A stretch of DNA of 40,612 bases, from the sequence record MT446393.1, one strand, 5' to 3'. Within the stretch, counting starts at the first letter, position 1; every line of letters starts with the position of its first letter. The DNA comes from Escherichia virus TH16. Position numbers and translations under genes: made by a program. The notes under the pieces are model-generated. The model searched no databases. It was not told the origin of the DNA and saw only the letters and a program-made list of their open reading frames with translations. Below are positions 669 through 40,612 of this stretch, one piece after another.

Positions 669-840
669 CTACGAAGTATTTCTCTTGGTTTACCAGCGAG
701 TCTTTTCCTTCAGCGTTACGGAAAGCACCCTTGACACCACCGCCACGCTTGGTCTTGTTCAGCTTGCGACCCTTCGGAATGTAATCTTCAGTCTGCTGAC
801 GTTCACGGATGCGCTCGAAGTTGATAGTGTTCTGATACAT
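661..840 (-). CDS. gp1.1: gp1.1-like small basic protein (59 aa from the internal ATG)
   Basis: KGRKLNKTKR motif as in remembered T7 gp1.1; track ORF 661..906 begins with TTG, so the ATG at 840 (GGAG upstream) was chosen. Confidence 0.5.
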   Translation of the reverse strand: MYQNTINFERIRERQQTEDYIPKGRKLNKTKRGGGVKGAFRNAEGKDSLVNQEKYFVGA

Positions 841-892
841 GTGGTTAAATCTCCAGTAGTTTACGTTAGGTAGTAGCTTTGCTACAGGGTTA

Positions 893-932
893 ATCATGAA
901 GGCCAAGACTTTGAGTCATGACCTTGAGTCTA
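893..932 (-). promoter_or_regulatory. Conserved hairpin-forming element, candidate RNase III processing site (R1.1-like position)
   Basis: Shares the AAGGTCA...TGGCCTT stem with elements at 9879..9926 and 33349..33398; can pair as an 11/12-bp stem. Confidence 0.35.
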
Positions 933-953
933 ATCCTATAGTGATAGTTTAGG
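931..953 (-). promoter_or_regulatory. Phage RNAP promoter (phi1.1-like); minus-strand CCTAAACTATCACTATAGGATTA
   Basis: Matches the window-wide promoter consensus; predicted TSS near 936. Confidence 0.65.
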
Positions 954-1027
954 TTAACCTCTTCTGCGTTGGATTAAAGTGAATACTGCGAGTGCTCCCA
1001 GCCACAGGGCCAGTAACTGTAGGTCTG

Positions 1028-1228
1028 TCATTTGGTTGCCGCCTCTTTAAGAGCCTGTTCGTGTGCCCGCTCCACCTGCTTAACCAACCACTTGAATGGG
1101 ACGTTAAGTTGCTTTGACATCTCGGTAGGGATGACCGTGGTCTTCACCAGACCCTTGCCGTTGTGTTCTGTTACGGTCACGATTTGAGTCCCACCCTTAA
1201 CGCCAGTCTGCTTGTGTGCAAATTTCAT
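1028..1228 (-). CDS. Hypothetical protein (66 aa) immediately downstream of the RNAP gene
   Basis: ATG start with AGGAG RBS; tightly packed after the RNAP stop. Confidence 0.5.
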   Translation of the reverse strand: MKFAHKQTGVKGGTQIVTVTEHNGKGLVKTTVIPTEMSKQLNVPFKWLVKQVERAHEQALKEAATK

Positions 1229-1242
1229 AACTCTCTCTCCTG

Positions 1243-3924
1243 TTAAGCGAATGCAAAGTCTGAAGACAAGATGTCTTCGATATTCAGTTTACCTTTCTTC
1301 GGAAGCTCAGGCAACTTGTCGCGCTGACTCTCGTGAAGCTGGTATTCGAACTGCTCGTAGAAGTCCAGCAGCACATCGTTGTCGCGGTAGGTCTCGACCA
1401 TCGTCTCACGGACTCCACGGAACAGATACTCAGCGTCAGCCGGGATGGTCCCGAAGCTATCGTGAATCACTGCGAATGACACCACGCCATACTTGCGGTG
1501 CGTGTGGACTACAGTCTTGCGGAGGTGGCTACCATCTTGTGAGTGGACGAAGTTCGGGCTAATGCCTGACTCCTGCTTGTGCTTGTCCAGCTCTTTCTTC
1601 GTGCCTTTGTTGACTGTAGGCTGAAGGTTGAATGACCCTAAGAACATCAGGTTCAAACGTGTGGTATCCTTCTTGCGGTATTCCTGCCAGACCGGGAAAC
1701 CATCAGGTGTGACCCAGTGTACCGGAAGGCAAGGCTTCAGGATTTCGCCAGTCTTCTTGTCCTTCACTTCAGCAGCCAGCAGCTTGGCAGCGCCTTGAAG
1801 CCACTTCATCGCGTCTACCGCAGCAACTACGGTCACACTCACAGCCTCCCAGATCATCTTAGCCATGAAGCGAGACGCTTGGCTTGGCTCAGTGAACATA
1901 GCGCCAGACCCTGAGTCAATCGCTGGCATCACGATGTCCTCGTAAACTTGGTCTGCGAAGCCGTACTCTTTCGACCCGTAGGCCAGAGTCATGACTGAAC
2001 GCTTAGTGACCTTGCGTGACATACCGTAGGTCAGCCACTGACGGGCCAGCTCGCGTGTCCCCAGCTTGATACGCTCGGTAATCTCACCAGTTTTCTTGTC
2101 CTCGTGAGTCACCATCTCGTTGTCCGTACCGTTAACCAGCAGGACTTTAAGCTCCTCCTCAATTCGATCAGACACGATGCGGTAGATGTCTTGAACCTTA
2201 CCGGATGGCGTTAGGTTTACTGCATGTCCACCGATGTGGTCACGAAGCATCGCGCTGAAGTGCTGAATCCCAGAGCAGGACCCATCGAACGCTATCGGCA
2301 GCGAGCAGGAGTAAGACAGGCCGTGGTGCATTACGCCAGCATACTCGAAGCAGAACGCGAGGAAGCAGAACGGAGAGTCTACCTTACCCCACCACTCAAT
2401 GCTGTCCATCGGTGCCTTAGCAGCAGCCATGATGTTAGCGTGGTTGTCTTCCACCCACTTGATGCGCTCCTCGAAGGTGACTTTATCGACACCCGCACAG
2501 TTTGCACCGTGGACCTTCAGCCATTTAAAACCATCAGCACCAATAGGCTTGCCGACTGCCAGAGTCAGGAGACCCTTCTGCATGTCGTTACCCTGAGGGT
2601 TGAACATCGGTACAGCGTAGACGCGACCCCGCCAATCCATGTTGTATGGAAACCAGATGGCCTTGAACTGAGAGAACTTGTTCGCTTGGTTGACGATAAA
2701 GCTCAGTGACAATCTGCGTGACTGTCTGGCCTTCTCGCGGCGATAGATACCAGCAGCAGCCTTCTTCCATGCCTTGAGTTCTTCTTCAGTCTCACCCGCA
2801 TAGTCCTCAGGCTTCAGTGGTTCCATCTGAGGGATGTCATCAATAGGCGTGTTGTTCAGCTTCTCGACCATGTTCACCACGTCCAGAACCTTCTTGTTAA
2901 CTTTCCAAGGTGTATTCTGGATGATGTTCACAGCGTCATAGACTTCAGGCATGTACACGTCTTCGTAACGTGCTGCCGCAGACTTGGAACCTAAGCGAAT
3001 CAGCGGCAATGGTCTGCGACCTTTGGCCCAATACCCACCTCCTACGACACCAGTCCACGGCTTAGGTGGAACTACGCAAGGTTGATAGACTGGCGCGATA
3101 CCCGCAAGGCTGAAGCCACGTTGTGCCATCTTCTTGACCCAGAATTCTGACAGGTGGACCATCTCTACATCAGCCGCTGCATTGCCAGCACCATAACGCT
3201 TAAGCTCGACCAATTGTGTTGACTGGATGACAATCTCAAGCATCTTGATGCCAACGTGTACCGCCTCGGTAGGACTCCAAGTCCCCCACGCATCTTCCAG
3301 TTGACCTTGCTCCAGCATGGAGGCCTCAACCGCTTGCATGTAGGCTTTCTTGTAGGATGCCCCGGCTCGCTTGTTCAGGTTCTCAGCTATCGCCTTTTTG
3401 AAGTGCTCCTTCTCCTGATCACGGATTCGACCGAAGCGGATTTCATCCTCAAGTGTGCGACCTATCGCGGAGGCCATCGGTGTAATCGGTATCCCTTCAG
3501 GCTTGACCAGCTTGGAGAGAATGACCTTCAGTATGATAACCGCAGCAGACTCACAGGAGATGCGCATAGAGCGGTCCTTGACGGCCTTCTCTTCAGTGCT
3601 CAACATGGTGAACGCTACGCTAGGACGAGAGGTTGACAGCTTCCCGTCTTGACCTTCATGCCACTCCTTTACGGCTTGCGCAATCTTAGGGACCAGAGTC
3701 TGCATCAAAGGTTTGGCGACCTGATTGTCTGCCAGTTCCCCGCGCTCAGTCTGTCGCTCAAGGTTCTTGATGAAACGTCGCTCGCCTTCAGTGTATGCCT
3801 CATGCTCAAGCTGAAGCTGTTTGACTGCAAGGTCCTGCCCGTAGTGGTCAGCCAGCAGGTTAAACGGCTCAATGGCGTTTGACACATCAGAGAAGTCGTG
3901 TTTGTCAATAGAGATGACGCTCAT
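1243..3924 (-). CDS. gp1: Single-subunit DNA-dependent RNA polymerase (893 aa)
   Basis: Clear similarity to T7/T3 RNAP along the whole length (e.g. FPYNMDWRGRVYAV, ESGISPNFVHSQDGSHLRKTVV, C-terminal FAFA). Confidence 0.97.
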   Translation of the reverse strand: MSVISIDKHDFSDVSNAIEPFNLLADHYGQDLAVKQLQLEHEAYTEGERRFIKNLERQTERGELADNQVAKPLMQTLVPKIAQAVKEWHEGQDGKLSTSRPSVAFTMLSTEEKAVKDRSMRISCESAAVIILKVILSKLVKPEGIPITPMASAIGRTLEDEIRFGRIRDQEKEHFKKAIAENLNKRAGASYKKAYMQAVEASMLEQGQLEDAWGTWSPTEAVHVGIKMLEIVIQSTQLVELKRYGAGNAAADVEMVHLSEFWVKKMAQRGFSLAGIAPVYQPCVVPPKPWTGVVGGGYWAKGRRPLPLIRLGSKSAAARYEDVYMPEVYDAVNIIQNTPWKVNKKVLDVVNMVEKLNNTPIDDIPQMEPLKPEDYAGETEEELKAWKKAAAGIYRREKARQSRRLSLSFIVNQANKFSQFKAIWFPYNMDWRGRVYAVPMFNPQGNDMQKGLLTLAVGKPIGADGFKWLKVHGANCAGVDKVTFEERIKWVEDNHANIMAAAKAPMDSIEWWGKVDSPFCFLAFCFEYAGVMHHGLSYSCSLPIAFDGSCSGIQHFSAMLRDHIGGHAVNLTPSGKVQDIYRIVSDRIEEELKVLLVNGTDNEMVTHEDKKTGEITERIKLGTRELARQWLTYGMSRKVTKRSVMTLAYGSKEYGFADQVYEDIVMPAIDSGSGAMFTEPSQASRFMAKMIWEAVSVTVVAAVDAMKWLQGAAKLLAAEVKDKKTGEILKPCLPVHWVTPDGFPVWQEYRKKDTTRLNLMFLGSFNLQPTVNKGTKKELDKHKQESGISPNFVHSQDGSHLRKTVVHTHRKYGVVSFAVIHDSFGTIPADAEYLFRGVRETMVETYRDNDVLLDFYEQFEYQLHESQRDKLPELPKKGKLNIEDILSSDFAFA

Positions 3925-3993
3925 ACTTAAAGTCCTTGTTATTAGTCTTTCACTTAAAGTCTCTTCGGTCTTTCACTTGGAGTCTTAGACCTT

Positions 3994-4016
3994 GAGTCCT
4001 ATAGTGATAATTAAGT
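3994..4016 (-). promoter_or_regulatory. Degenerate phage-promoter-like site upstream of the RNAP gene
   Basis: Minus-strand ACTTAATTATCACTATAGGACTC; mismatches at -14, -11 and +3 to +6. Confidence 0.35.
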
Positions 4017-4021
4017 CAGGA

Positions 4022-4282
4022 TTACTTGCATATCAGCGGGTTAGCGTGGAGATGACTGAAGCCACCGTTGGTAGTGTGCTTGATTGTTGACCGTTGGTCT
4101 ATCGCCTTCCAGCCTGAGACCAGAAGTTTACCATCATCGGTGATTGGTCGTCCACCATACGCCAGACACACCAGCTCGGACTTATGGCCCTCTGCTCTCA
4201 GGCGGCGCTGGAGGAACATATCGCGCTGTACTTGCTCCATGCGGCTACGGCTTGATGATTTATGAGTGTATACGGTTTTCAT
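4022..4282 (-). CDS. Hypothetical early protein (86 aa)
   Basis: ATG start; stop overlaps the start of the upstream gene by 1 nt (TAATG). Confidence 0.5.
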   Translation of the reverse strand: MKTVYTHKSSSRSRMEQVQRDMFLQRRLRAEGHKSELVCLAYGGRPITDDGKLLVSGWKAIDQRSTIKHTTNGGFSHLHANPLICK

Positions 4283-6329: not shown

Positions 6330-6502
6330 CTCAGAGACAGACCCATAGTCCCAACCTATCGTCCAACCTCCAGCCATAGCCACTACCTATCGTCGACCTA
6401 ACGTCTTGACCATCGGTCCAACCCTATGATAGACTGGGGTAGGGCCTTTGGTCTGACTTAAAGAGGGCCTATGGGGAGACTTTAGGTTCTTGAACTGTGA
6501 GA
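6330..6502. repeat. Collapsed terminal-repeat region; physical genome left end near 6502 on the minus strand
   Basis: Minus strand from 6502 reads TCTCACAGTTCAAGAACCTAAAGTCTCCCCATAGG..., resembling remembered T7/T3 left ends; repeat extent is an estimate. Confidence 0.45.
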
Positions 6503-6739
6503 TGTGGTCTCAAACTTTTGGTCCAAAACTCATCGTCACTACTGTAGGCCTAAGCCACTGTAGGTCAAGGACCGTAGGTCAGGCGACACTAGGATAGACC
6601 AATAAGTAGGATGACCCTAAGTGAGCTTCTATTAAGGTGTTACCTAAAGTCCTTGACTACAGTAGCTAAGGTCAGTAGAGTAGCGTCAGCTATGAACTGA
6701 CCTTAGGTCTTACGCTCATGAATAGTTACCATGATTGCG

Positions 6740-6898
6740 TTAATTACACTGAGAGACCAGAGAACATACGAGAGTCTCGACCCACCCGACCCACTGACTT
6801 CCAGCAGTAACGCCAGCAGCAAGTAGAACAGCAGCAAGAAACCTGTATGTAGCTCGATTGGTCGCCAGAGCTTTAAGTACAGCTTTGGTCTTTGCCAT
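6740..6898 (-). CDS. gp19.5: gp19.5-like small hydrophobic protein (52 aa), not in the ORF track
   Basis: AGGAGG RBS; position after terminase; translation MAKTKAVLKALATNRATYRFLAAVLLAAGVTAGSQWVGWVETLVCSLVSQCN. Confidence 0.45.
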   Translation of the reverse strand: MAKTKAVLKALATNRATYRFLAAVLLAAGVTAGSQWVGWVETLVCSLVSQCN

Positions 6899-7078
6899 AT
6901 GCTACATACCTCCTGTATCTATGGTCGGTGACTATCTGTATTGGAGGGATTATGATTAATATCACCCTCCTTCCATCGGTGCAAGCCTTAGGTAAGAACT
7001 CGGAGTCTGCCTCCTAAGGTCTTGCATAAAGTCTGCATATGTATATTCACTACAGTAATACTATAAGTAACCGGGGGT

Positions 7079-7101
7079 CTTCCCTATAGTGATAGTTAAG
7101 T
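7079..7101 (-). promoter_or_regulatory. Phage RNAP promoter downstream of terminase, reading toward the genome end (phiOR-like)
   Basis: Minus-strand CTTAACTATCACTATAGGGAAGA. Confidence 0.6.
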
Positions 7102-7195
7102 CCAAACTTCTTGTAAAACAGTAGGTTAGACTGGTAGTAACTATAGGTTACTAACTGCGTATTCATGCAGCTTTCACCTATAGTTATTCATTCAG

Positions 7196-8962
7196 CTAGT
7201 GGAGCGTAACGTATGACCCTAGTCCAAGCTCGTCGTCCGTATCGTTAGTTACCCGGACCCCATTGTCCCAGAACTCAGTGTGGATGGACTCGAAGCCTTT
7301 CCGTGGGTTCTCCATCTGTTCCTCCAGCCACTCCTCAGTGACTTCACGTTCGCCTTTGTTGGCATCCTTCGCCATAGACTCAACGAAGAACTGTACACCG
7401 ATAGCCAGCGCATCAAGTCGGTCATCGTGTGCCAAGGCTCCACGCTCACGAGAGATACGGGTCATCTGGTAGAAGAGAGAGTAGATAGGGTTACGAACAC
7501 CGTCCTTATCAGAGGCCGACTGGTAGTCTTGGACGATAGCAGCAGCGTTAACGATAAGTCGGTGAGACCCCATGATAGGCTCCAGAACGTCACAGATGCG
7601 GAGTTCTTTCTGACCCTTACTCTTCACTTCAGTTACAGCAGCAGGATGGATACGGGCCGCTACAGGCTTGAATAACTCAAGGTACATACCATCACCGAAG
7701 TTACCCTCAATGACGTATTCGTTTACCTTCCACTTACGACCAATCTTAGCCAAGGCTTCTAGCGTAGAGTCCTCATAACCACCACGCATACCTCCAACTT
7801 CCATAGCGAAGATGTAGCCGTTGAGCTGATACAGTACCGCATAGCCAGTTTCATCCTTACCACGACCACTAGGGTCAATGACCAGAATCTTCTGGGTGTA
7901 CGAACTGAAGGCAGAACCTACAGTCTGATACGTGTGGTATGAGTCACCCATGAGTCCAACGTTAGGAACGTCCTCACGCTTGTTCTGAGGGTTTGGCAAC
8001 CATTGGTAGACCATTGGGCTGGACGCTGGGTCCAAGTCCGCTACGATAAGGTCACGGAGCTTCAGAGGGTACTTCTCAGCATCACTCAGGTTCGGGTTAA
8101 GCATGAACTGCAGAGCGAAGCCAGCTTTACCATAGGACAGCTCACGTTCCTTCAGGTCCGTATCATCGAATCGTACCTCATCGGTCGGACGCCAGTAGAA
8201 GGGCTCAGGGTCCTCTTCAAGCTCTGCCTGAAGCATCGGTGCCAGACGGTCGCCGTAAGACTGCCAGTCCTTCCTGTCGCGTGGATAACGAGCCGGCCAG
8301 ATAGTAGTGGTATATCCACGGCCTTCAAGCTCACGATACAGGGTCATCTCGTTCTGAGGAGTACCCAGATAGATGATTGTGCCTCCAGGCTTCAGGATAG
8401 CGTCGAACTCTTTAACAAGCTCTGACAGACGGTCTCGTGCAGCCTGAGTCGCTGAGTTGTTAGGAACCTCCACGTCATCTGCAATCAGGATGTCAGCACG
8501 ACTACCAGTCAACTGACCAGTGATACCAACGGACTTAACCGAAGGTGAGTGGTCTGGCTTGGCTGGCCCAACGTCGAAGCTGATAACCGCATCTCGCTGT
8601 CTCTGCTTAGGTTTGAGTTCCTGAAGCTGAGGCATGAGGTCGATGATTCGCTTGATGAAGATGGAGTTAGCATCTGCTCGTTCCTTTGAGGCCGACACAA
8701 TCATGAACTTCAAGTCTGGGTTGTTCCATAGTTTCCAGACCACGAAACCACAGGTCAGAAACGACTTGCCAATACCACGGAACGCCTGAAGGATGAAGCG
8801 GCGATTATCCCCAGCAGCCAGCTTCTTACACATATCTATCTGGCAGCGGGTTGGAACCGGAAGGCTAAGAGCTTTCCAGAGAACGAAGATGAAGAACACG
8901 AAGTCGTCCCTCATCCTTTGGGTCATTTCTGCCTGTCTTTCAGCGGGTGTTTTCTTAGACAT
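7196..8962 (-). CDS. gp19: Terminase large subunit / DNA maturase B (588 aa)
   Basis: Length and sequence similar to T7 gp19; ATG start and TAG stop checked. Confidence 0.95.
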
Positions 8963-9392
8963 ATAGTCCCTCCAACATTAGGTCCCGGACAGCGATAGCC
9001 TCCTCTAAAGTGGGACGTGTTGTGCGCATATAGGCATTCCCGCGTTTAACCTGAATCCTATAACCATTCTGGTGATGGGTAACGCACTTCACTCCCGTCT
9101 TAGAGTCATAATGGCTACCAGTGTTCCAAGTGTTCTCAGCAGCAGTAACGAGCCGTAAGTTACTTAAGGTGTTATTGCTAGGGTTCCTGTCGATGTGGTC
9201 TATTTGCATACCATGTGGTATAGGACCATTGGTTAGTTCCCATATCACACGATGCGCCCGCTTACTGCCTAGACTTCGTGTCTGTACTATCCAATATCCC
9301 ATCAGACTTAATGTCCCCACAGGCTTTCCAGTCCTAACGGAGCCCAGACCGGATGGACTAGCCGGGTCCACTTTGTAGTAATCACTTAACAC
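8955..9392 (-). CDS. HNH homing endonuclease with a C-terminal AP2-like domain (145 aa)
   Basis: HRVIWEL...[20 protein letters not shown]...EN HNH motif; GTG start with AAGGAGG RBS; paralog of 38895..39377. Confidence 0.8.
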
Positions 9393-9819
9393 CTTGGAGC
9401 CTCCTTATTGTGTCCTGAAGCGCCTTCTCCTTAAGGTCTGCCTCCTGAGTTATTCGGATAATACTTTTAGAAGTTTCTGGGTGTAGTTCGACTCTACCAT
9501 TAGGGAAGCATCTACTGACATCTGACTCGATGAGACCTGAGGTGTTGACTCGGACGCGCAGCCGCTTGTTATCGCGGTTAAGGTCAGCAATAATCCTATC
9601 AGTAGAGCCTTCCAGCGCGGACATCTTGTCTTGCCACTCGGCTGACACTTTGTCGAGTTCACCTTGGACAGCAGCCCGTTGATTCTCTCGTGCCTCAAGT
9701 TTCGTGATGTACTCATTGTTTACCTTCGCCTCCCACTTATTGTCTGCCACCCAGTAGCCTGAACAGAACAGGAGTCCTGCCACCAGCCAAGGTACGCATC
9801 TACGTAAAAGTTCGAGCAT
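9382..9819 (-). CDS. gp18.5: Rz-like i-spanin (145 aa)
   Basis: N-terminal transmembrane segment then a charged coiled-coil-like region; position after the small terminase. Confidence 0.7.
   Translation of the reverse strand: MLELLRRCVPWLVAGLLFCSGYWVADNKWEAKVNNEYITKLEARENQRAAVQGELDKVSAEWQDKMSALEGSTDRIIADLNRDNKRLRVRVNTSGLIESDVSRCFPNGRVELHPETSKSIIRITQEADLKEKALQDTIRRLQGVK
9450..9716 (-). CDS. gp18.7: Candidate Rz1-like o-spanin embedded in the +1 frame of Rz
   Basis: Embedded ORF with hydrophobic stretch then ...AITSGC lipobox-like cysteine; start uncertain because the n-region from the first ATG is unusually long. Confidence 0.35.
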   Translation of the reverse strand: MSTSRNLRHERINGLLSKVNSTKCQPSGKTRCPRWKALLIGLLLTLTAITSGCASESTPQVSSSQMSVDASLMVESNYTQKLLKVLSE

Positions 9820-9878
9820 AGTTGCCCTCCTCGTTTCTCAGAACCCACGTAGCGTCTCCGCCCGTAGTGTGTGTTAAC

Positions 9879-9926
9879 CATAAAGGCCACTACATATAGT
9901 AATGACCTTGAGTCTAACACTTAAGA
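9879..9926 (-). promoter_or_regulatory. Conserved hairpin element, candidate RNase III site (R18.5-like position)
   Basis: ATAAAGGCCAC...AATGACCTTGAGTCTA block shared with 33349..33398. Confidence 0.35.
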
Positions 9927-9929
9927 GAT

Positions 9930-10193
9930 TTATTGCACTCCATATCCAGTGTCATTATCTTCCGTAGCGGAGAGCACCTTATCGTACTCTGCGTTCAGTG
10001 CCTCCATATCAGCGAGCGTCTTCTCGTCAACAGACACCTTGCTTAGCACGAAGTTGTGACGAGCCAGTAGCTTCTCAATGGCGTTGTAAAGCTGAGGTGA
10101 ACGCTTAGTGTCATCCCGCAGGTCTTGCAGCATGAGTCGAGCACGTTCAGTATCTAGCATTAAGAGGAACTTCTCTAAGTCCATCTGCGTCAT
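9930..10193 (-). CDS. gp18: Terminase small subunit / DNA packaging protein A (87 aa)
   Basis: Similarity to T7 gp18 (LMLDTERARLMLQDL...SPQLYNAIEKLL). Confidence 0.8.
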   Translation of the reverse strand: MTQMDLEKFLLMLDTERARLMLQDLRDDTKRSPQLYNAIEKLLARHNFVLSKVSVDEKTLADMEALNAEYDKVLSATEDNDTGYGVQ

Positions 10194-10384
10194 GTTTTAC
10201 CACCTCCTTTAATCGTTTTGTAGACTAGCACACCAATCTGGGCAACGGTGTACGCGATAGCTGCAACGTAGAACCATTCGTTCAGTGTAAGTCCGAAGAA
10301 GAACCTACTGGCACCATCAGCCGCAGCGGTCCCGACGATAGGAGAGGCTTTAAGGACCTCATTCTTGAAGTCTAACTCAATCAT
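10190..10384 (-). CDS. gp17.5: Holin (64 aa)
   Basis: Similarity to T7 gp17.5 (FFFGLTLNEWFYVAAIAYTV). Confidence 0.85.
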   Translation of the reverse strand: MIELDFKNEVLKASPIVGTAAADGASRFFFGLTLNEWFYVAAIAYTVAQIGVLVYKTIKGGGKT

Positions 10385-10489
10385 AAAACCTCCAGTTTAA
10401 AGCGGGTCGTCCGTGACCCAAAGTTGTTACCATACGTTGGTCAGCGTGTAGATAGAGTAAAGAGATGGGAACCATCAGAGCCATTGATA

Positions 10490-13051
10490 TTAAATGGTTT
10501 TTACTTCCCATCGACGGTCATAATAGTGGCTGAATCCACAATACGTTAAAGTCATATGGACAACCGCCATTGACATAGAAGCAGTCGCGGTATCAACACG
10601 AATAAACGTTTTACCGCCCGCCACCATTTTACTTACGGTAATCCCATCAAGAGATTTATCCCCGGCATCCTTATTCGACCATAGAACACCAGAGGCTACG
10701 TTTGCTTCTGTTGACCCAGAAATACTAAACAATAACCGACCTCCTGCTTCGGTGCCCCTCAGCCCATTCTTATTTACGGGTATGATAGACATCTCCCCCG
10801 CCAGAAAGCACCCACCTTCAAATCTGCTTTCTTCTCCAACAGCGGTAAGAAGGATATCTACACAACGGTTCCACGGTAGGATGAACGACGCTGTCTCAGT
10901 TCGTACTTGTCTGAAATACGCTTCGCTGTTAACCGCTGCGGATGACATAAGCACCCCGTTATATGAATTTGCACCTTCAAGTGGCGCAGACCCGTAAACC
11001 CTGCCTCCGACGGATGAGCTTTTTACAAGTGTGTTAGAGTAGACAGCAGTGCCATCGGTGAGTTTGATGAATCTGAACATTTCGCCAAAATAGAACGAGT
11101 TACCGTATGCACCAACGTTAAGGCCGTCCACCTTATTTATCAATTGGATAGTATAATCGGATTTTACATACCCGGAATCCAATACAATACTACCTTTAGG
11201 CATGCGTGATTCATTCTTCGGCGGGGTTATAAATCTCAATACCCCAGTATTCATAGACGACTGAATCCAACACGACACGTTGCGAAACACGACTTTATAG
11301 GTATCGTCAGTTCCTTCGTATGCGGAAAAGTCTAACGCATCGACGCCGTTTATACCCTCTATCCCTAAACCATCGATCTCCAAGCTGCGGATATTACCCA
11401 TAAAAGAGTGAGGCTTGATACACCCGTCAGCAGCGATATTCGTCGATTTTATGTACACAATGGGTGCGCCTGATGCGGGCACTTCAGGGGCATATGTAGT
11501 ACGGTTAATCGCTGCGCCCCATAAATAGCCGTAGTCGCAGTGGTGCGCCCATATCGCTCTCATATCCAGCGAGGTGGAACCGGATACCGCAAAGCCATAG
11601 GTGCAATCGTAAGCATAAAGATTGCTGACAGTGCTTACGAAAGCAGCATTAGGGAACGCGAATTTGTAGTGATAGAACTCGACGTTATTTATGTCAAACA
11701 GCTTGCCTCCACCACCGTTTGTCCCGGGATCACTTATCAGTAAAGGGCACCCGGAATACGCGCTATCTGCGTTACGAAACGCGATGTTATTTACGTGCGG
11801 ATTGTGCGCCCATAGGGTTGAAATAAACCCGCCTTTCCCTGACGTGTAAATAATGCTCTGTCGTGGTTTGACTCCTCGTAAGTCTAAACTCTTGCCAGCC
11901 CATCTGTTTAAGCTAATATCAATCTGGGTGGTACCTATGTAGATTGGCTGTTCGATTAATAAAGGAATATTGTGCGCAATACTTGCGGTATACGCAGCCA
12001 GCATCGCGGCCCCGTCGTTATGGGTTCCGGAAAGGTCGGCAGCCCCCATGCTTGGCGCTTTAGGATATGGAGTTCCCTGAATGGTGCTGCCGTCGATATA
12101 TGGAGCATCCATCCATGCGCCAAACATTTTAGGGGTAATTCCCCGAACGTTTGATAAGTCCCTTTTCCAGCGCTTACCTCCACTAGTAATTATAACAACG
12201 CCATTATCATCATTAGTTGTGGAATCTGCTAAGTCCGCATAGAACCACCCACCACCAGAATCACCAGACTCATTGGGTGTAATTGATGTTGTATGTTTTT
12301 CTACAAAAATGCGCTGGCCATCAACATCAGGTTCAATAGTTCTTAATGTTGATATATCATCGCATTTGCCGATTAACTTAAATCCATCGCTTTTATTTAA
12401 TTGACTCCTTAATGAAGCATCACCAACACTAACCCACGCACCTAGTCCAATCCCACCGGAAGTTTCAGGAGTTGAACCAGCAGGAACGTTCTTTGGAAGC
12501 GTACCATCCCAGCGGTAATAATCACCATCCTCTTCCCATAGCAGGACCTCGTTCCATGTTGTAACGTTGAAGCCTTTCTCGAAGGAGCGACGGGTAATAT
12601 AGCCAATTCGACCAGCTTCCTTGATACTCGCAGCGATTCCTCGTGCTTCGTCCTCGCTATCCTTAGCGTTGCCAGCAGAGGTACCAGCAGCATCGGCATA
12701 TTCCTTCGCTAAGTCAACCGTTTGGTCTCGACCTTCTTCTGCAATATGGATAGCCTGAAGCTCTGCATTGGTCAGGTCACTAGCTGTCAACACTGAGCCA
12801 TTCCTGAAGTCTACCACTAAGTCAGTTCCAGTCTGACGGTGAATACGAACGATGTCGAAACCTGATTGGTCAACCAACATCTCAATCATCGTTGGATTAA
12901 GGAATCGGTAATCTCGACCAACTTCCAGTACACGGTTCATGGTAGGGTTAGAGCTATTCACCAGCGTAACAACAACAAACGTTCTGGCTAGGTAGTCGAA
13001 CTCAATCCTGTACTGAGTGTTTCCTGAAGGGAATTGTGTAATAGTGGACAT
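10490..13051 (-). CDS. gp17: Tail fibre / tailspike (853 aa): T7 gp17-like N-terminal adaptor with a large unrelated C-terminal region
   Basis: N-terminal ~150 aa align with T7 gp17 ([28 protein letters not shown]); the rest is Gly/Ser/Thr-rich and not T7-like. Confidence 0.9.
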
Positions 13052-13097
13052 TATGCCTCCTTTGTGATTTAAAGGGAGACCTATGGTAGCGCCTCCC

Positions 13098-13120
13098 GTT
13101 TCCTATAGTGATAGTTTAGT
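13098..13120 (-). promoter_or_regulatory. Phage RNAP promoter (phi17-like) overlapping the 3' end of gp16
   Basis: Minus-strand ACTAAACTATCACTATAGGAAAC. Confidence 0.7.
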
Positions 13121-16100
13121 CCTTGATGTGAATACCTTGCTCCTCAAACGTTCCAAGCAGCAACTTCTGGGTAATCGGGTCGTTCGGAACCAGTTCACGG
13201 AACGTGTTATACATCCCGGTCATGTAGTCCCGCTCATTGACACGAGTATCCGCCTTTAGGTATCCAGCCAAGTTATAAGCCGAAGCACCAACGTTAGCAG
13301 CATATCCAAAAGCTGGAACCTGCTCCAAGAAGTTACCAACGACATTCATCACAGGGTCACTTGTAGCCGCGCCATATGGGATAGCACGTTCAGGCTTCTC
13401 TGTAGGTGAACGAGGTAGGATAGACGAGCGGAGCAGCTTAGTGTCCTCATACCCAGCGATGCCACCTAGAATGTTAGCTACCCCAAGTGGGCCACCCAGA
13501 TGTGAACTACGGGACAGAGCCGCATATCCAATCATCATCGGGTCCAGAGCTTGCTTGAGGTATTCACGGTCTCTTCCATCCTGCATAGCGTAAGCCTTGA
13601 CGTGAGCCTGAGCCATGTAGTAGATACCAGCCAGACCCATAGACATCACGGTAGATAGAGCAGCATCCATCGCTCGGTTGTTCTTCGTGGAGTTATAGAA
13701 GGTACGCATGGTTCGCCCATTGATGGACTTGATGACGAAGTTCTTAAACTGAAGGACAGTCTTAGCGAGAGGACCATACGCCTTGGCGTCCATGTTTGAC
13801 AGCTTGTGGGGCCGGAGTAACGTTTCGTCAGCGATGGTGTCACCCATACGCCACAGGTCCATAGCCCTTGGGTCCTGACTGAACGCCTTCTTGTCCTTGA
13901 TGGTATACTTCCCGTCTGGACCACGAGTCACTGACTCACGGATTAATGACTTAATGCCCTTCCACTGCTCATCAGATATACCAGCGGTCTTCAGCCAGCG
14001 GTCATCGAACTTACGCTTACTACCAGTAAGGCTATGCTCAACGATGTCAGACAGGAAGCCTTGACGTCCAGCATCTAACAGGTAGTTGGTCGTACCATTG
14101 AGGACTTTAGTGAACGGAGAGCGTACTGCAAGTTCACCAGTGTAATACTTGGCAGTCCCCAGAGCTGTAGCTGCCCCGCGACCTAAGTCGCTATAGGAGC
14201 GCAGACGGTCAATGACGTCCTGTTTAGACGGGCGGATTGAGTCATCAAGTTCCTTACCGAAGAGAACATTGTGAAGGTCCTTAATCTCTGAGGCTCCTAC
14301 CTTCTTGTTACGGAAGGCTAGGTCACGGAACATCGGGACTCCATGAAGCAGTGCACGAACGTTACCACGAGCCAGCATACCGCCAATCTCCGTTAAGTTC
14401 TGAACACCCATGTAGGCATTCTTAGCGAAGAACGATAGGTCTGTCATTGTGCGCATCACGGTAGCGAAGGCCGCATCATCAGCACCATCACGTCGAGCAC
14501 GACCAGTTAGAATCTTCAAAGTGTCACGTAAGGTAGATACTTCACCTTTCAACTTACCGTCGTCCCCAGCCTTGTTCATCATGGTCTCAACCAAGTCCTT
14601 CATGTCCTTCGTGGTTTTGCCTGTACCAGCCATGATAGCAATGTCACCATTAACTCGACGGTTGTATGCCGGGACAATCTTGTCCATGTCCCACTCACGC
14701 AGGTTGTTGACACTGAAGGTCTGCCCATTAGGTAGGACGATTGACATATCGCTATCGAACAGGTTACGAGCCTCAAGGAAGCTGTTGTTCTCCAGACCAA
14801 CCAGACCGTTGATGTTCTCTTCCATTACGGATGAACGTTCGAACTGCTCGGTGTGGGAGATACCGTAAGCCTTATCGTTGGCGTACTTATCGACCGCAGC
14901 CGCAAGCCCCTCTGGAGTCAGCGTAGGGTCAGCCTCTAAGAGTGCCTCGTCCACGCGTTTCTTTACTTCAGGTCGAGACGCATAGCTGGTCAACCATGAC
15001 TTTTTGATGGCCTCCTGCAACGCCTCTGGACTCCCAAGCTCCTTGATGTACAGCTCCTTCATCTGTTTGCTATACACATGAGGGACGTAGGTTCCCTTGA
15101 AGCGGCTACCCGGAAAGATAGACTGAGCGTCTGGGCGACCAAACATAGACGGGTTCTCCATCATCTCACGCTTGGCGTCAAACTGGTTCTTCAGCAGGTC
15201 ATAGACTTTCAGTTCTCCCGGAGTCAGTTCAGCCTTCAGGTTTCCGCTACCATCTTCGATAGCCATAGACACACGCTGGTAGATGTCCTGACGGAATGCG
15301 CCGGAGTCTCGCCAGAATGCTGTCTGGAAGTACGGGTCCTTGAGCGCCTCAGTAACCGCATCGTCGATGTCGTTGTAGAACCGATGGTCCACAGCACGAA
15401 GTCTCTCGAATACGTCTGACGCAGTGGTCCCGATTTTACCTGAGGCACCGGACTGCATACCAGTCGGTGAACGCACTAAGTCAGCAGCGACTCCACGAAT
15501 CTCAGGGTTCTCGGACCGAAGCAGCTTCAGGCCAATCTCAGTCAGCCCACCAAGGTTCACACCAGCAGCCGCACGTTCAGGCTCAATCACTTCGTCAAAG
15601 ACTTGACGTGTCTTAGGGTTCAGAGGGTTCTCACCAATCAGGATTGAACCATCTTCCAGTCGTACACTACCCGGCTCGTTCGGAACGTCTGCGAACTTAA
15701 CACCTTGATGACTGAAGGTCTGCTCACCTTCCTGAATAGGGAGACGAGACAGGTCCTGACCATCAACGTTACGAGCGGTCTCGCGAGCTTCCAGACGTGT
15801 AGCTGGACCAGCAAACTCATTAGTGTTGCGACCTAAGGCTCTGCCTAATCCATCAGAGATAGCAGTCATACCACCACCGAAGAGAGCACCACCAAGGATA
15901 GCTTCAGCCACATGAGCATCACCACCAGCCACTGAGGTACGGGCCATCTCGGACACACCAGCCAGTGCTCCAGATTGAGAAGCCACGGTGAACATCTTGT
16001 TGACCAGCTTACCACCTTTACCCACCTGTCCAGCGATAGGAACGTAGGTTAGAGGATCCACACCAGCACCAATCACACCAGCGGCTAACTGAGCACCAGT

Positions 16101-30550: not shown

Positions 30551-30831
30551 TGCTTGAACCCCACGCTGATATTAGAGATGGTGGCACCGTCTTCCGGCAG
30601 CTCATCTTTCAGCTTGGACGCCAGCACAGACTTCAGGTGCAGCTCAATGGCTGCTTCTACCCCGTGCTCTACGGCAGTCTCTACCAGCTTACGTGTCAGC
30701 CCATCCTGCTTCTCTCCAGCGATGTAACCCTTTGTCATCTCAACCAACTCCTGAGAGTAATACTCTACCTCATCTACCGTAAAGACAATCTTCAGGTCGA
30801 ACTTACAGGTCAGGCGTTTTGTCATAGCCAT
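30547..30831 (-). CDS. gp5.5: gp5.5-like protein (94 aa from the ATG)
   Basis: MAMTK start as in T7 gp5.5; AAGGAG RBS; track ORF begins upstream at 30888. Confidence 0.7.
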   Translation of the reverse strand: MAMTKRLTCKFDLKIVFTVDEVEYYSQELVEMTKGYIAGEKQDGLTRKLVETAVEHGVEAAIELHLKSVLASKLKDELPEDGATISNISVGFKQ

Positions 30832-31144
30832 TAGCTTTCTCCTTCTTAATAAGTTTGCGCTCACGGTTCGTCTTGATGACGTGATCACGCTTTGGAATAC
30901 ACTGTAGGTGTTCTACGTTACAGCACCCACGATTCAAACACAAATGGTCTATCTCATAGCCATCTGGTATAGGCCCACGCTTCTGTTCCCACACCCATCT
31001 GTGAAACATAAACGCCTTGCGTCCAGGCTTACGGGCAGAGCCTACCGTGTACCGAAAGTATCCATCATGGTTTCTACGATGTGATACACAGACGATACAT
31101 CCAGTAGGCATCTTATGGAAGCGTAAGGTTGCTACACCTCCCAT
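30803..31144 (-). CDS. HNH endonuclease (113 aa) directly after the DNA polymerase gene
   Basis: Cys-rich HNH core (CIVC ... IDHLCLNRGCCNVEHL ... RDH); AAGGAG RBS. Confidence 0.8.
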   Translation of the reverse strand: MGGVATLRFHKMPTGCIVCVSHRRNHDGYFRYTVGSARKPGRKAFMFHRWVWEQKRGPIPDGYEIDHLCLNRGCCNVEHLQCIPKRDHVIKTNRERKLIKKEKANGYDKTPDL

Positions 31145-31153
31145 CTTATCTCC

Positions 31154-33325
31154 TTAGTGACATTCGCGCCACGTAGGTCCTATCTTCCCCTCGGTGTCAA
31201 GCACACACTTGAACTGGTAGAACTCTCCAACCTCTCGCATTGTGGACTGCGCCACTCTAACGATGTCCTCGGCTATTTCCATAGTCCTTGCTGCAACCTG
31301 AACTTCGTCATGGACAAAAGCCATAATCGCAAAGTCACCATCCCAGCCATGCACGTAGCCTTTAGCTTCTAGGTTCCTCTCAAGCCAAGTGAACCACGTT
31401 TTACAGACTACCGCACCATCACCTTGAAGTAATGCGTTTAGTGCTGAGTGTGGAGACCGTATGTGGATACGGCGACCGTCAAGTCCACGCAACCAACGGC
31501 GTTTCCACTTAACGATGTTCTCTCCGTCCACCCACTTAGAGTCTGATATTAACGTATTACTAACAGCTTCCCTGAGGTCTTTGATGGCTGGTGTACCCTC
31601 AATGAATTTCTTCATGAGAGCTGAACCTTCCTTCTTACCGCCACCGACTATCAGTCCAATCTTAGCGGCCCCTGCACCATACAGGAACGCATAGATGAAC
31701 GTCTTAGCGTTGTTACGGAAAGCATCATGGTCGTGGTTCGACTTATCGCGTGGGACGTTAGGTGCTAACCCAGCGTTTACTGCGTTGGCCCAGTGGATGT
31801 CACCTTCGACCACAGTCTTCGCATAGGCACCACCGTCAAACGGAGCCGCTCGGTTCCCCAGACAACGAAGCTCAAGACCTGAGGCATCCACACCTACTTG
31901 AATCCAAGGGTCTGGCTTACCGTCATTCTTGTTCCAAGCTGCACCGAAAGCACCACGGCAAGTCTCACCATATGGAGCACCGTTAGCCGGGACTTGAGCC
32001 ATGTTTGGTGAATTATGAGTCGCACGTCCGGTTACTGCCCCACATGGGTTGATTGAACCGTGCATACGTCCGTCTGGACCTACAAGTTTCAACCATGCGT
32101 TCTTACCTTCAGCCGCCTGACCGATGCGCTTCTGGACTACCAGGTACTCACGGACCAGCTCTACGCAAGCCTGAGCCTCTGCGTCTGGCAACTTAACGTG
32201 TTCTAACGTCTCGTCATCGACTACAGGTTTACCGGTGTCAGTGAAGTCCACAGGCTCCCAACCACGCTCCATCAGGACTTTCGCTAAGTGGTCTCCGCTT
32301 CCCGGATTAAACTCAACGTAAGTGATAGGTGTGAACGGTGCTCCATCCATCGTGTCTCGTGAGTCGAACTCGCAAGGTTCAAGACCTAAGCGTTGAGCTT
32401 TGTTCTTCGGCTTCTTGAATACTGACCCGACCTTAGGATACACGACTCGTGGATACTTCGGAAGGTCCTTGCCTGTCCGTGGATGTCTGAAGAACTCCTT
32501 GCCTCCCTTTGGTGCGTACCAGCTACCGAAAGTCGAACGCAGCTTGTCCAGCAACTCTGCACGTTTGACGGTGAGTTCACGATATAAGCCTTCGACCATC
32601 TCGGTGTTCATCGGATAGCCGTTACGTTCCATCTTCGCACAGGTCCACGCAGCATCATGTTCCAGACGCAACGCATAAATCTGGTCGAAAGCGAACTGTT
32701 CAGACTGGAAGTAATACTTGTCAGTCAGGAACTTCTTGAACAACGCCAGTGTGACCACAACGTCTTGAACGTTATAGTCCAGCATCTCCTGAGACGGGAA
32801 CAACCATTCGTCACCCGACTTATATTCGATACCTTCCGCCTTGCACTTGGCAACGTAATCGTGTTTGTACTCACCTTTCATCTCACCGAGACGATAACCC
32901 CAAGCCTCAAGAGACTGACGTCCCATCATCTGAGGTGGCAGACGACCAGCTTTCACTGCGCCCATGTCTGAGAACTTAATGTTTGGATACATCAAGCGGC
33001 CCAGCACCAAGGTATCAATCATCTTGTGTTTCGGGAAGTTAAAACGTTTCCCAAAGTACATACGCTTCAGCTTGTCTATAGCCGGGACGTCATAGTTGAT
33101 ACCATTATGGAAGACAAGCATACCATCCGGTGATGCGGCAATCTCTTCCACCTTCTGCACATACTCTTTGAAGCCACCGACGATACCGACCATCGGAGCT
33201 ACCCCATACTTAAGGGTCTCATTCGACTCGGCGTTAATCAGGACCCCACAGTGAAACTGGGAGACTGTATCAAGGAGACCGTTGGTCTCGATGTCAGAAC
33301 CCCAGATACTATTAAGGTCAAACAT
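31154..33325 (-). CDS. gp5: DNA polymerase, family A (about 723 aa from the ATG)
   Basis: Similarity to T7 gp5 throughout (DIETNGLL, VFHNG.KYDVPA, KTFIYAFLYGAG, C-terminal GPTWRECH); GGAGGA RBS before the ATG at 33325. Confidence 0.95.
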   Translation of the reverse strand: MFDLNSIWGSDIETNGLLDTVSQFHCGVLINAESNETLKYGVAPMVGIVGGFKEYVQKVEEIAASPDGMLVFHNGINYDVPAIDKLKRMYFGKRFNFPKHKMIDTLVLGRLMYPNIKFSDMGAVKAGRLPPQMMGRQSLEAWGYRLGEMKGEYKHDYVAKCKAEGIEYKSGDEWLFPSQEMLDYNVQDVVVTLALFKKFLTDKYYFQSEQFAFDQIYALRLEHDAAWTCAKMERNGYPMNTEMVEGLYRELTVKRAELLDKLRSTFGSWYAPKGGKEFFRHPRTGKDLPKYPRVVYPKVGSVFKKPKNKAQRLGLEPCEFDSRDTMDGAPFTPITYVEFNPGSGDHLAKVLMERGWEPVDFTDTGKPVVDDETLEHVKLPDAEAQACVELVREYLVVQKRIGQAAEGKNAWLKLVGPDGRMHGSINPCGAVTGRATHNSPNMAQVPANGAPYGETCRGAFGAAWNKNDGKPDPWIQVGVDASGLELRCLGNRAAPFDGGAYAKTVVEGDIHWANAVNAGLAPNVPRDKSNHDHDAFRNNAKTFIYAFLYGAGAAKIGLIVGGGKKEGSALMKKFIEGTPAIKDLREAVSNTLISDSKWVDGENIVKWKRRWLRGLDGRRIHIRSPHSALNALLQGDGAVVCKTWFTWLERNLEAKGYVHGWDGDFAIMAFVHDEVQVAARTMEIAEDIVRVAQSTMREVGEFYQFKCVLDTEGKIGPTWRECH

Positions 33326-33348
33326 GGTTAATCCTCCGTTTAGTCTAA

Positions 33349-33398
33349 TCATAAAGGCCACTCGCTGTGAATGACCTTGAGTCTAGACCTAGAAGTCT
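33349..33398 (-). promoter_or_regulatory. Conserved hairpin element, candidate RNase III site (R4.7-like position upstream of the polymerase gene)
   Basis: Same conserved block as 9879..9926. Confidence 0.35.
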
Positions 33399-38894: not shown

Positions 38895-39377
38895 TTATAA
38901 TGAATCTCTTAAGGCTACTGCCTCGGCTATGGTCTTGGCATAACGGACCACACGTTCTCCATTAGCAACCTTCTTGATGCAGTATAGCTCTCGGCCTTTC
39001 ACTTTGGAGATGTGACGCTCTCCCGTGGCGTTGGTTGACATCTGGCCTTTGTTCTGGTTGTTCTCTGAGTGAGTCACCAGACGCAGGTTTGAAAGCCTGT
39101 TGTTGGAAGGGTTCCTGTCAATGTGGTCAATCTCCATACCATCTGGTATTTGGCCATATGCAAGTTCCCATATTACCCGATGTACCTGTAGGTGTTTGCG
39201 TCCCCACGGTGTCCTTACGTTTATTGTCCAATAGCCAGAAGTCTTCTTACTACCGACCCTTCTCCCAGAGTTAAGTGCCAGCCCTGAGGCCGACCTTTCA
39301 TCAACCTTAAATCTTGACTGTAGGATTGTCCTCAGTCCCTCGCCATTGGTAGAATGACGGGTGTCGCAGACTTCCAT
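38895..39377 (-). CDS. HNH homing endonuclease with AP2-like domain (about 160 aa from the ATG); overlaps the 3' end of the ligase gene
   Basis: [41 protein letters not shown]; ATG at 39377 with GGAGGAG RBS (track start 39512 is TTG). Confidence 0.8.
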   Translation of the reverse strand: MEVCDTRHSTNGEGLRTILQSRFKVDERSASGLALNSGRRVGSKKTSGYWTINVRTPWGRKHLQVHRVIWELAYGQIPDGMEIDHIDRNPSNNRLSNLRLVTHSENNQNKGQMSTNATGERHISKVKGRELYCIKKVANGERVVRYAKTIAEAVALRDSL

Positions 39378-40338
39378 CTGGTGTCTCCTCCATGTAGGTG
39401 ATTTGACAAGCCCACCCATTGTAGTAATCAGGGTCTGACTTAACGTTATCTGTGAACTCGGACATAAGGGCGCGACTAATGTTAGTTGCGGAGACCTCCA
39501 TCCCGTTCTCAAGCATCACGTCAAATCCGATGACCATGCCCTCGTTGGCTAGGCCATCCGTACCCCACACAGGGCGCACAACATGACCGTCTGCCTCTTC
39601 GCTCGGCTTCATCTTCCACATGCCAGACTTCTTGCCACGCTTCCAGCGTCCAAGAGGGTCTTTAACTACCAGACCTTCTTGCCCATCTGCGCGCTTCTCT
39701 TCGTACAAATCCTGAAGAGACTCAAGGTCGTACACTGTATGACTCTCAGATAATACCCAGTCGATTTCCGGGAAGTATTTCTGGAGGAGAGGGACGATAG
39801 CTTCGGCCTTCAGGCGAGTGACGCTATGGATAGGGCCTTCGGCTTTCGGGTCGGTGATGACGTTAAGGTCCACGATACCGTAGACGACCACCTTGATATG
39901 GGCTCGGTCCAGCCTGAACTGAGTAGTCTTGGACTTGAGGTCCCAATCGCCATCGTGGAAGTCGTAGTTTTTAGACTTGACATACTTCGTGCGAATGAGA
40001 CCTGAAGACGTATTGAAGTCCACTCCTTTTACCATGACCTCGCCATCAATCATCAGGCCAGTGCCTTCGTATCCAGCCTGCTTCAGGAACCACAGCCAGT
40101 CGCTAGACTCGGTCTCCCAGAGGTCCTCTCGAGAAGTGTCCAGCCAGCTCAGGGCCGGAAGTGACTTAGACTCACGGCTCAACCATTGGGTCTCACCAGT
40201 AGGGAAGACCGGGAGGTTCAACCGGACACCATCGTACTTCACTTCAGCTTCCAGCGACCCAGCAGCTTCCAGAGCCTTCTTAACGCCAGACTCAGAGTAA
40301 TCTACAGCGCGGTGCGGGTTAGTTTTAATAGTTGTCAT
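39307..40338 (-). CDS. gp1.3: ATP-dependent DNA ligase (343 aa from the ATG); its 5' part is duplicated at 1..394
   Basis: KYDGVR adenylation motif and strong similarity to T7 ligase (MKPSEEADG, DGSLRHPSF..RGTEDNP); GGAG RBS before the ATG at 40338. Confidence 0.95.
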   Translation of the reverse strand: MTTIKTNPHRAVDYSESGVKKALEAAGSLEAEVKYDGVRLNLPVFPTGETQWLSRESKSLPALSWLDTSREDLWETESSDWLWFLKQAGYEGTGLMIDGEVMVKGVDFNTSSGLIRTKYVKSKNYDFHDGDWDLKSKTTQFRLDRAHIKVVVYGIVDLNVITDPKAEGPIHSVTRLKAEAIVPLLQKYFPEIDWVLSESHTVYDLESLQDLYEEKRADGQEGLVVKDPLGRWKRGKKSGMWKMKPSEEADGHVVRPVWGTDGLANEGMVIGFDVMLENGMEVSATNISRALMSEFTDNVKSDPDYYNGWACQITYMEETPDGSLRHPSFYQWRGTEDNPTVKI

Positions 40339-40612
40339 TGTGTTATCTCCATGTGTCGAGTTGGTTAGCGAGACAGTTAAGGAAGCCTGTGGCAGTGTTG
40401 TACAGTACGTCTTCATCGCGGTGTGCGAAGATCTTAAGCGCGAAGATGTTACCAGCTCGGTCCTCGACTTGAAGTCTCATGAACTCTTTCCGAAGATGCG
40501 CCTCGTACCAGTCCTGCTGTATCACGCAGAAGTCTAACTGATATAGTCGGTTACACGCTGCTTTGAAAGCGTTTAGGTTGCCACTGTAAAGTCTGCCCAT
40601 AGCGTTATGCTC

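Follow-up and report, generated by a model that had tools for sequence, protein, structure and literature searches.

The open reading frame between the Rz gene (18.5) and the large terminase gene TerL (19) of this Kayfunavirus is probably a free-standing homing endonuclease gene, whose product would combine an HNH_3 nuclease of the I-HmuI type with a C-terminal AP2 domain. A homing endonuclease had been the preferred reading in the initial annotation, and it is now supported by the I-HmuI-like HNH and AP2 architecture, by the patchy presence of the gene, by remnants and other occupants at the same junction, and by paralogues at classical sites. The gene itself is already known, annotated and described in close relatives. 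The window analysed here (the whole stretch of 40,612 nucleotides from Escherichia virus TH16, record MT446393.1) comes from a K1F-like, T7-like Kayfunavirus (Autographiviridae/Studiervirinae), and the 1.4 kb around the HNH gene is 92–97% identical to the phages AN17P1, vB_EcoP-101118UKE1, Hafnia phage yong1 and Citrobacter phage CR44b.

Position, start and expression of the HNH gene

The gene order is tail fibre, holin (17.5), small terminase (18), Rz/Rz1 (18.5/18.7), HNH and TerL (19), and the features of the region are collected in Table 1. The HNH open reading frame stands far above chance, with matches to Pfam HNH_3 (PF13392, aa 44–87, E 8.5e-21, 73.8 bits against a cut-off of 24.8) and to PHROG 99 'HNH endonuclease' (E 1e-39), and its identification as an HNH endonuclease was therefore correct. 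The coordinates, the GTG start and the AAGGAGG preceding it are also as first annotated, with the addition that the gene lies on the minus strand, which had not been given. The proposed overlap with the end of Rz is real and amounts to 11 nt (Rz stop TGA at 9384–9382). At the other end the gene does lie just upstream of the large terminase gene as described, but its stated reach of 7 nt into that gene should read 8 nt, a trivial difference: the TerL ATG occupies 8962–8960 and the HNH stop TAA 8957–8955, within the shared sequence ATGTCTAA.

Table 1. Features of the Rz–HNH–TerL region and the nearest phage promoter-like sites (window coordinates).
Feature	Position	Strand	Remarks
HNH endonuclease ORF	8955..9392	minus	145 aa + stop, GTG start; Pfam HNH_3, PHROG 99, structure model
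GTG start of HNH ORF	9392-9390	minus	
Shine-Dalgarno AAGGAGG of HNH ORF	9400..9406	minus	7-nt spacer to GTG; within Rz codons I-R-R
N-terminal beta-strand region, aa 1-43	9264..9392	minus	counterpart of the I-HmuI N-terminus that contacts DNA
HNH_3 catalytic core, aa 44-90	9123..9263	minus	H47-R48, D65-H66, N78, N87 = I-HmuI H56-R57, D74-H75, N87, N96
AP2-like DNA-binding domain (predicted), aa 100-141	8970..9095	minus	three strands, then a helix
Rz (i-spanin, gene 18.5)	9382..9819	minus	PHROG 1327 E 4e-54; Pfam O_Spanin_T7 E 4e-18
Rz1 (o-spanin, gene 18.7)	9450..9716		embedded in Rz
Large terminase TerL, T7 gp19 type (gene 19)	7196..8962	minus	PF22530 E 6e-38; PHROG 38 E 1e-131
TerL ribosome-binding site GGAGGG	8968..8973	minus	5 nt before TerL ATG; in the final HNH codons; kept in the Ro45lw deletion remnant
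TerL variant leader, first ~16 codons	8915..8962	minus	similarity to HNH-less phages starts only downstream of the leader
Phage-RNAP promoter-like site CTAAACTATCACTATAGG	13096..13123	minus	nearest upstream of HNH; ahead of the tail-fibre gene
Phage-RNAP promoter-like site	7077-7104	minus	after TerL

The GTG start is credible because the frame stays open for only four codons before it, because the 65%-identical allele of PRF-SP6 and PM139 carries ATG at the homologous codon (MLSDSY versus MLSDYY), because residues 1–30 are modelled with pLDDT values of 93–97, and because the 2022 description of Hafnia phage Ca called the same GTG independently (PMC8861465). The Shine-Dalgarno sequence inside the end of Rz is strong. 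At the equivalent position PRF-SP6 reads ATACGTAGG, so the HNH Shine-Dalgarno arises from a synonymous Arg codon. At the opposite end, the final ~25 nt of the reading frame (GGAGGGACTATATG) hold the TerL start codon and the ribosome-binding site that precedes it, and the gene is thereby slotted into the late operon without breaking translational coupling.

Between the two phage-RNAP promoter-like sites of Table 1 there are no others, from which we infer that the HNH gene belongs to the transcription unit of late genes 17–19. A scan of positions 6500–10600 for sigma-70 promoters and intrinsic terminators gave no excess over shuffled sequence; the relevant promoters here are the phage-RNAP sites. 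The GC content of the gene (0.489) is not distinct from that of the genome (0.501), so its composition shows no sign of recent foreign origin. Two more HNH_3 genes (E 3.6e-23 and 1.9e-18) are present in the window, at 38898..39512 by a probable ligase gene and at 30806..31144 directly after a probable DNA polymerase gene.

An I-HmuI-like nuclease maintained by selection

The protein was aligned with 27 database homologues. Residues H47, R48, D65, H66, L79, R80, N87 and N90 are invariant across this alignment, and N74 and N78 are nearly so. The N-terminal two thirds of the alignment profile match I-HmuI (1U3E; E 1.7e-10), and the C-terminal third matches plant and apicomplexan AP2/ERF domains (WRI1, 4e-8; TEM1, 2e-4; ERF096; AtERF1). 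An AlphaFold model of the protein has a pLDDT of 92.3 and a pTM of 0.71; the N-terminal and nuclease regions share the fold of I-HmuI, and the C-terminal region is of the AP2 type of DNA-binding domain. Searches with the Pfam AP2 model gave no match on the whole protein or on its C-terminal 51 aa, and the AP2 assignment is thus based on the family profile together with the structure model. Homing endonucleases with an N-terminal HNH and a C-terminal AP2 form an established class, for whose genes a hotspot is known upstream of terminase (PMC10448857).

Selection on the gene was estimated after leaving out MII_004, which contains frameshifts. The dN/dS ratio of the HNH gene is 0.09–0.13 among close alleles and 0.23–0.28 between the two allele groups, and that of the catalytic core (nt 120–270) is 0.14; the corresponding range for TerL is 0.03–0.06. 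These low values imply that the protein is being maintained and is not decaying, and we read the gene as intact, under purifying selection and in possession of the I-HmuI catalytic residues. They bear directly on the idea that the gene is a decayed, non-functional relic of a past invasion. Some records would fit such decay, namely the GenBank entry of yong1 with its 1-nt insertion, MII_004 with several frameshifts, and the deletion remnants in Ro45lw and R1. The TerL gene of MII_004 is also fragmented, however, which suggests sequencing errors over real decay, and the reading frame in the window is intact, with all catalytic residues, dN/dS values spanning 0.09–0.28 and a confident fold. A relic is accordingly the least credible account of this gene, and we consider it extremely unlikely.

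Patchy distribution and the edges of the cassette

Whether relatives carry the gene had been put forward as a check on the initial annotation, and the comparison separates 55 occupied from 140 empty junctions. The first count is of records with full-length matches to a 116-nt probe over the HNH-3'/TerL-5' junction, and the second, for the empty K1F-type junction, is of records found with the equivalent probe from HC13, which lacks the HNH gene. A tblastn search finds proteins with 60% identity or more to that in the window in 53 phage records (13 at more than 90% identity and 40 at 60–80%), and all 53 have the gene at the Rz/TerL junction. Several hits at or below 50% identity instead adjoin a DNA ligase gene (NC-A, pO111 and P483, and also phiYeO3-12 gp1.45 and KMI1), and one hit in this identity range, in Aeromonas phage PT2 (49%), lies beside TerL. 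Metagenomic homologues of 49–55% identity, from clearly different T7-like phages, are found directly upstream of a T7-type TerL, which the HNH gene overlaps by 8 nt in two loci and by 17 nt in a third. Judged by these positions, this HNH clade is specific to the site upstream of TerL.

Phages lacking the gene present a range of junctions. Rz and TerL share just 4 nt (TTGA) in K1F, Dev2 and HC13, and the K1F/HC13-type junction sequence is AAGGAGGTGAAGCATTGAGTAAAGACTTAGTGGCGCGTCAGGCGCTAATGACTGC; yet nucleotide identity to the TerL gene of the window is 94.2% for K1F, 84.6% for Dev2 and 95.7% for HC13. Ro45lw has an internal deletion in the HNH reading frame, of which 18 nt at the 5' end and ~50 nt at the 3' end are left, and the length of the match in vB_EcoP-R1 points to a similar remnant. 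BUCT788 carries a different HNH_3 gene (127 aa, with AP2) at the Rz/TerL junction, with another one separating TerS from Rz, P762 has an unrelated ORF of 263 aa at the junction, and in pO2 the Rz end is of the window type and TerL has the HNH-linked leader, with no HNH gene at all. The gene is thus patchily present between conserved genes and has empty counterparts, as a homing gene would be.

The edges of the cassette are abrupt. Within TerL, similarity to five phages without the window-type HNH stops between 8914 and 8935, with breakpoints at 8914 for K1F, IMM-002 and Dev2, at 8925 for BUCT788 (which has the different HNH) and at 8935 for HC13. On the Rz side, K1F, Dev2 and HC13 realign only from ~9540, inside Rz, and IMM-002 from 9395. 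The first ~16 codons of TerL vary with the occupant of the junction: HNH carriers and Ro45lw have one leader in common, empty genomes encode (L)SKDLVARQALMTARM and BUCT788 encodes MQLTPQERNEAVTKRM, and homology resumes at GACTTCGTGTTC after these variant leaders. Between alleles i and ii, dS exceeds 1.3 in the body of the HNH gene and falls to 0.14 in its last 57 nt, against 0.13–0.32 in TerL, so that the HNH body is much more diverged than its flanks. The edge pattern seen here agrees with the reported general finding that nuclease genes delimit the tracts exchanged between phages (PMC10448857).

We rejected the idea that the TerL leader is exclusive to HNH carriers, since pO2 and a few others have it without the gene. 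The leader consequently does not mark the cassette strictly. Given the pO2-type phages, it may have arrived with the cassette or have been present earlier, and either insertion or loss fits the data. It was also considered that the Rz/HNH overlap in the window arose by a ~12-nt deletion from the allele-ii arrangement, which is uncertain because the Rz end of pO2 is similar without an HNH gene.

A GC-rich element, GGCGCGTCAGGCGC, was observed in the K1F-type leader and is absent from the leader of the carrier. It may be speculated that this element is a candidate contact for the AP2 domain.

A natural deletion of the HNH region has been described in Hafnia phage Ca (GenBank yong1), which is 94% identical to the window in this region at the nucleotide level. 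A spontaneous loss of 397 bp removes HNH sequence, and intact genomes make up more than 98% in large plaques and deleted genomes more than 98% in small plaques, for which the authors speculated on an effect on terminase or lysin expression (PMC8861465). The plaque data indicate that the HNH region affects fitness. With the TerL signals inside the reading frame and the end of Rz overlapping it, the phenotype would be at least as likely to stem from a polar effect as from loss of nuclease function. No direct repeat that would explain the 397-bp deletion was found in yong1, where AGGAGGCT repeats at a spacing of 401–402 nt; TGGA is the only match of at least 4 nt at a spacing of exactly 397. As a suggestion only, deletion at TGGA would leave a mini-ORF of 13 codons and keep the TerL ribosome-binding site.

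These observations lend something to the view that a resident selfish gene is kept mainly for structural reasons, with or without retained homing: its 3' end supplies the ribosome-binding site, ATG and coupling of TerL, and most deletions would be costly. Both GGAGGG and the TerL ATG lie inside the HNH reading frame, the Ro45lw deletion spares its last ~50 nt, and the sole microhomology of at least 4 nt at 397-bp spacing in yong1 would likewise spare the TerL signals. Alleles that elsewhere share only 65% identity hardly differ in their last ~57 nt, as the drop in dS given above reflects, and the phage Ca deletion has its plaque-size phenotype. We nevertheless hold this explanation to be improbable, since purifying selection affects the protein in its entirety, the catalytic core included, which a structural role alone would not need, and since TerL with that leader is expressed in pO2-type phages, which lack the HNH gene. 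The practical point stands regardless of how the gene is viewed: in engineering or 'cleaning' therapeutic Kayfunavirus genomes, the last ~20–50 nt of the cassette should be kept because they supply the translation signals of an essential gene.

Homing, packaging and comparison with known systems

Enzymes of the I-HmuI type are nickases. From the known behaviour of these enzymes and of free-standing phage homing endonucleases, together with the layout of the locus, a course of events can be proposed for a homing gene at this site. The sequence supports late transcription with genes 17–19, translation from the GTG by way of the Shine-Dalgarno sequence inside Rz, and a protein in which a two-part DNA-binding surface (the N-terminal strands and AP2) accompanies an HNH active site of the one-metal kind. 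During a mixed infection, this protein would nick or cut the Rz/TerL junction of an HNH-less genome, and recombinational repair from the carrier would copy the gene into the recipient, along with ~48 nt of adjoining TerL sequence and a part of Rz. The carrier itself would be immune, its own site being split by the insertion and its TerL leader diverged. Site-specific cleavage and biased inheritance of this kind would have their only indirect support in the breaks of similarity at the cassette edges. Three observations sit less easily with this course: pO2-type phages have the HNH-linked leader without the gene, the constant position upstream of TerL across genera is equally predicted by a partnership with TerL, and the plaque sizes of phage Ca point to an effect of the region on fitness.

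A wider proposal, which we offer as possible but on balance doubtful, is that the Rz/TerL junction of Kayfunaviruses is a multi-occupant hotspot for homing endonucleases where all stages of the life cycle occur side by side, from naive sites (K1F type) through two 65%-identical HNH alleles and an unrelated HNH (BUCT788) to remnants (Ro45lw, R1) and loss (pO2 type). The cassette would then come with translation signals of its own and replace the first ~16 TerL codons, restoring terminase expression and immunising the carrier, and the plaque polymorphism of phage Ca would reflect recurrent loss and re-acquisition by homing within the plaque. For the HNH gene itself little is at stake, as it is a standard selfish nuclease gene; the locus is of use as a compact natural series on mosaicism driven by homing genes around terminase genes.

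The partnership with TerL deserves separate treatment, as the initial annotation had raised the option of a packaging cofactor, that is, a protein that cuts concatemers together with the terminase as HK97 gp74 does. The HNH gene adjoins TerL and is translationally coupled to it, its 49–55%-identity relatives in other T7-like genera hold the same position, and the deletion variant of phage Ca is linked to small plaques, all of which speak for such a role. Against this, HK97 gp74 (from NC_002167) scores on PF01844 and not on PF13392, the HNH protein scores on PF13392 only, and BLASTP between the two shows no significant similarity (E 0.15). PMC3592412 describes cos- and terminase-associated HNH enzymes as carrying [CxxC]2 zinc sites, and the protein in the window has a single cysteine and no zinc site. 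Its TerL is of the T7 type with its own RNaseH-like nuclease domain (by the PF22530 match in Table 1, with a weak Terminase_6N match) and not of the HK97 type, and the role of gp74 is tied to Terminase_1-family enzymes of long-tailed phages (Kala 2014, as cited in PMC8861465); the phage in the window, moreover, is not a cos phage. Finally, ~140 records are empty at the junction, and K1F and HC13 (TerL 94–96% identical), Ro45lw and pO2 are without the gene. The existence of viable natural isolates that lack the HNH gene and have a near-identical TerL argues against a requirement in packaging; the gene is dispensable in K1F, HC13, Ro45lw and pO2 and appears not to be needed for DNA packaging. 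HNH family, zinc site, terminase type, cos and conservation among relatives thus all speak against the packaging option, and we regard a cofactor role as very unlikely. More generally, no packaging role should be assumed for an HNH gene beside a terminase gene outside HK97-like cos phages.

A homing endonuclease remains the preferred reading, and the known systems can be compared with the gene in the window. HK97 gp74 is likewise a small HNH protein encoded beside terminase genes, but it differs in its Pfam family (PF01844), in its HK97-type terminase partner and in belonging to a cos phage. The IPA-HNH class (Barth et al. 2023, PMC10448857, and the AP2-HNH family cited there) shares the order of HNH and AP2, neighbouring essential genes that include terminase, and patchiness. 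The ICP1 members of that class do not score on the canonical Pfam HNH_3 model, unlike the window protein, and the AP2 domain of the latter is short and seen only through the family profile or structure model. I-HmuI (PDB 1U3E), encoded in an intron of Bacillus phage SPO1, has the same N-terminal strands, HNH_3 beta-beta-alpha-metal core and catalytic residues; here the gene is free-standing, the C-terminal module is replaced by an AP2-like domain, and identity is 22–23%.

The proteins phiYeO3-12 gp1.45 (46% identity) and T7 gp3.8 (47.5% over the core) belong to the same HNH_3 family and are small free-standing ORFs of T7-like genomes, although they lie elsewhere, adjoining the DNA ligase gene or occupying the gene 3.8 position. 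The sites of the other two HNH_3 genes in the window correspond to that of phiYeO3-12 gp1.45 and to the gp5.3 site of T7-like phages. The same gene in the same place is found in CR44b as gene 3.8A (95% aa identity), annotated as 'predicted homing endonuclease', and in Hafnia phage Ca (vB_HpaA_yong1) as ORF48 (97% aa identity over aa 19–145), annotated as an HNH homing endonuclease, for which the same GTG/TGA and ATG/TAA overlaps were described in 2022 (PMC8861465). Apart from the 1-nt insertion in the yong1 GenBank record, these two differ from the gene in the window by a few substitutions only.

Occupants and remnants of the Rz/TerL junction

In the relative Ro45lw, what is left of the HNH ORF, namely its first 18 nt and last ~50 nt, makes up the 53-nt region between Rz and TerL (1964-2016), which appears 'intergenic'. 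The remnant still forms an ORF of 23 codons ending at the same TAA, and the TerL RBS is kept. Phage pO2 has no HNH gene at this junction; its Rz and TerL genes share 11 nt (GTGGCGAATAA; within 1160-1260), and TerL begins at a GTG placed behind the same AAGGAGG and carries the leader of the HNH-linked type, i.e. the first ~16 TerL codons found in HNH carriers. This arrangement represents either a clean loss of the HNH gene or the state preceding its insertion.

Other phages have different genes at the same position (see table). The TerL of BUCT788, which lies alongside a different HNH_3(+AP2) gene, has a leader of its own (MQLTPQERNEAV), and in P762 the TerL RBS of K1F type (the type with an empty junction) and the TTG start are intact downstream of the inserted ORF.

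HNH genes and other insertions in the window and in relatives (own coordinates)
Genome	Coordinates	Strand	Feature
Window	38898-39512	-	HNH_3 gene (Pfam E 3.6e-23); adjoins probable DNA ligase ORF 39307..40416
Window	30806-31144	-	HNH_3 gene (Pfam E 1.9e-18); directly after probable DNA polymerase ORF 31154..33361
CR44b (L002)	1-185		Second HNH gene, just downstream of TerL
Ro45lw (L001)	1-187		Second HNH gene, just downstream of TerL
L015	6201-6725		Second HNH gene, just downstream of TerL
BUCT788 (L010)	2935-3318		Different HNH_3(+AP2) gene, 127 aa, at Rz/TerL junction
BUCT788 (L010)	3745-4146		Second HNH_3 gene, between TerS and Rz
P762 (L020)	413-1204		Unrelated 263-aa ORF, function unknown, between Rz and TerL

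Translation start and reading frame of the junction HNH gene

The Shine-Dalgarno sequence of the HNH gene in the window (AAGGAGG, 9400-9406) is built from the Rz codons ATA-AGG-AGG (9400-9408), whereas phages with the allele that is 65% identical, such as PRF-SP6, have ATA-CGT-AGG with unchanged amino acids and use a different Shine-Dalgarno sequence (AAGGAGAAG) further downstream. Judged from these sequences, the window's version looks like a new site made by a synonymous change in Rz.

In its GenBank entry, Hafnia phage yong1 carries one extra T at about 2340-2350 (CCGTTTAGG versus CCGTTAGG), which shifts the frame of the HNH ORF, such that only a 45-aa fragment is annotated there, as opposed to the 143 aa given in the paper (PMC8861465). 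The extra base probably stems from an error in sequencing or assembly.

Related HNH genes elsewhere in the genomes

A stretch of 33 nt (~76% identical) is common to the junction gene and the two further HNH_3 genes of the window, and the ligase-side copy matches the junction gene over 133 nt at 71%. Window positions 39945-40612 exactly repeat positions 1-668, and the genome unit is therefore 39,944 bp; this 668-base repeat could be an assembly wrap-around or a terminal repeat.

Downstream of TerL, the window has only gp19.5 (6740..6898) at the place where three relatives carry an HNH gene, named '3.8B' in CR44b, so that in some relatives HNH genes bracket TerL.
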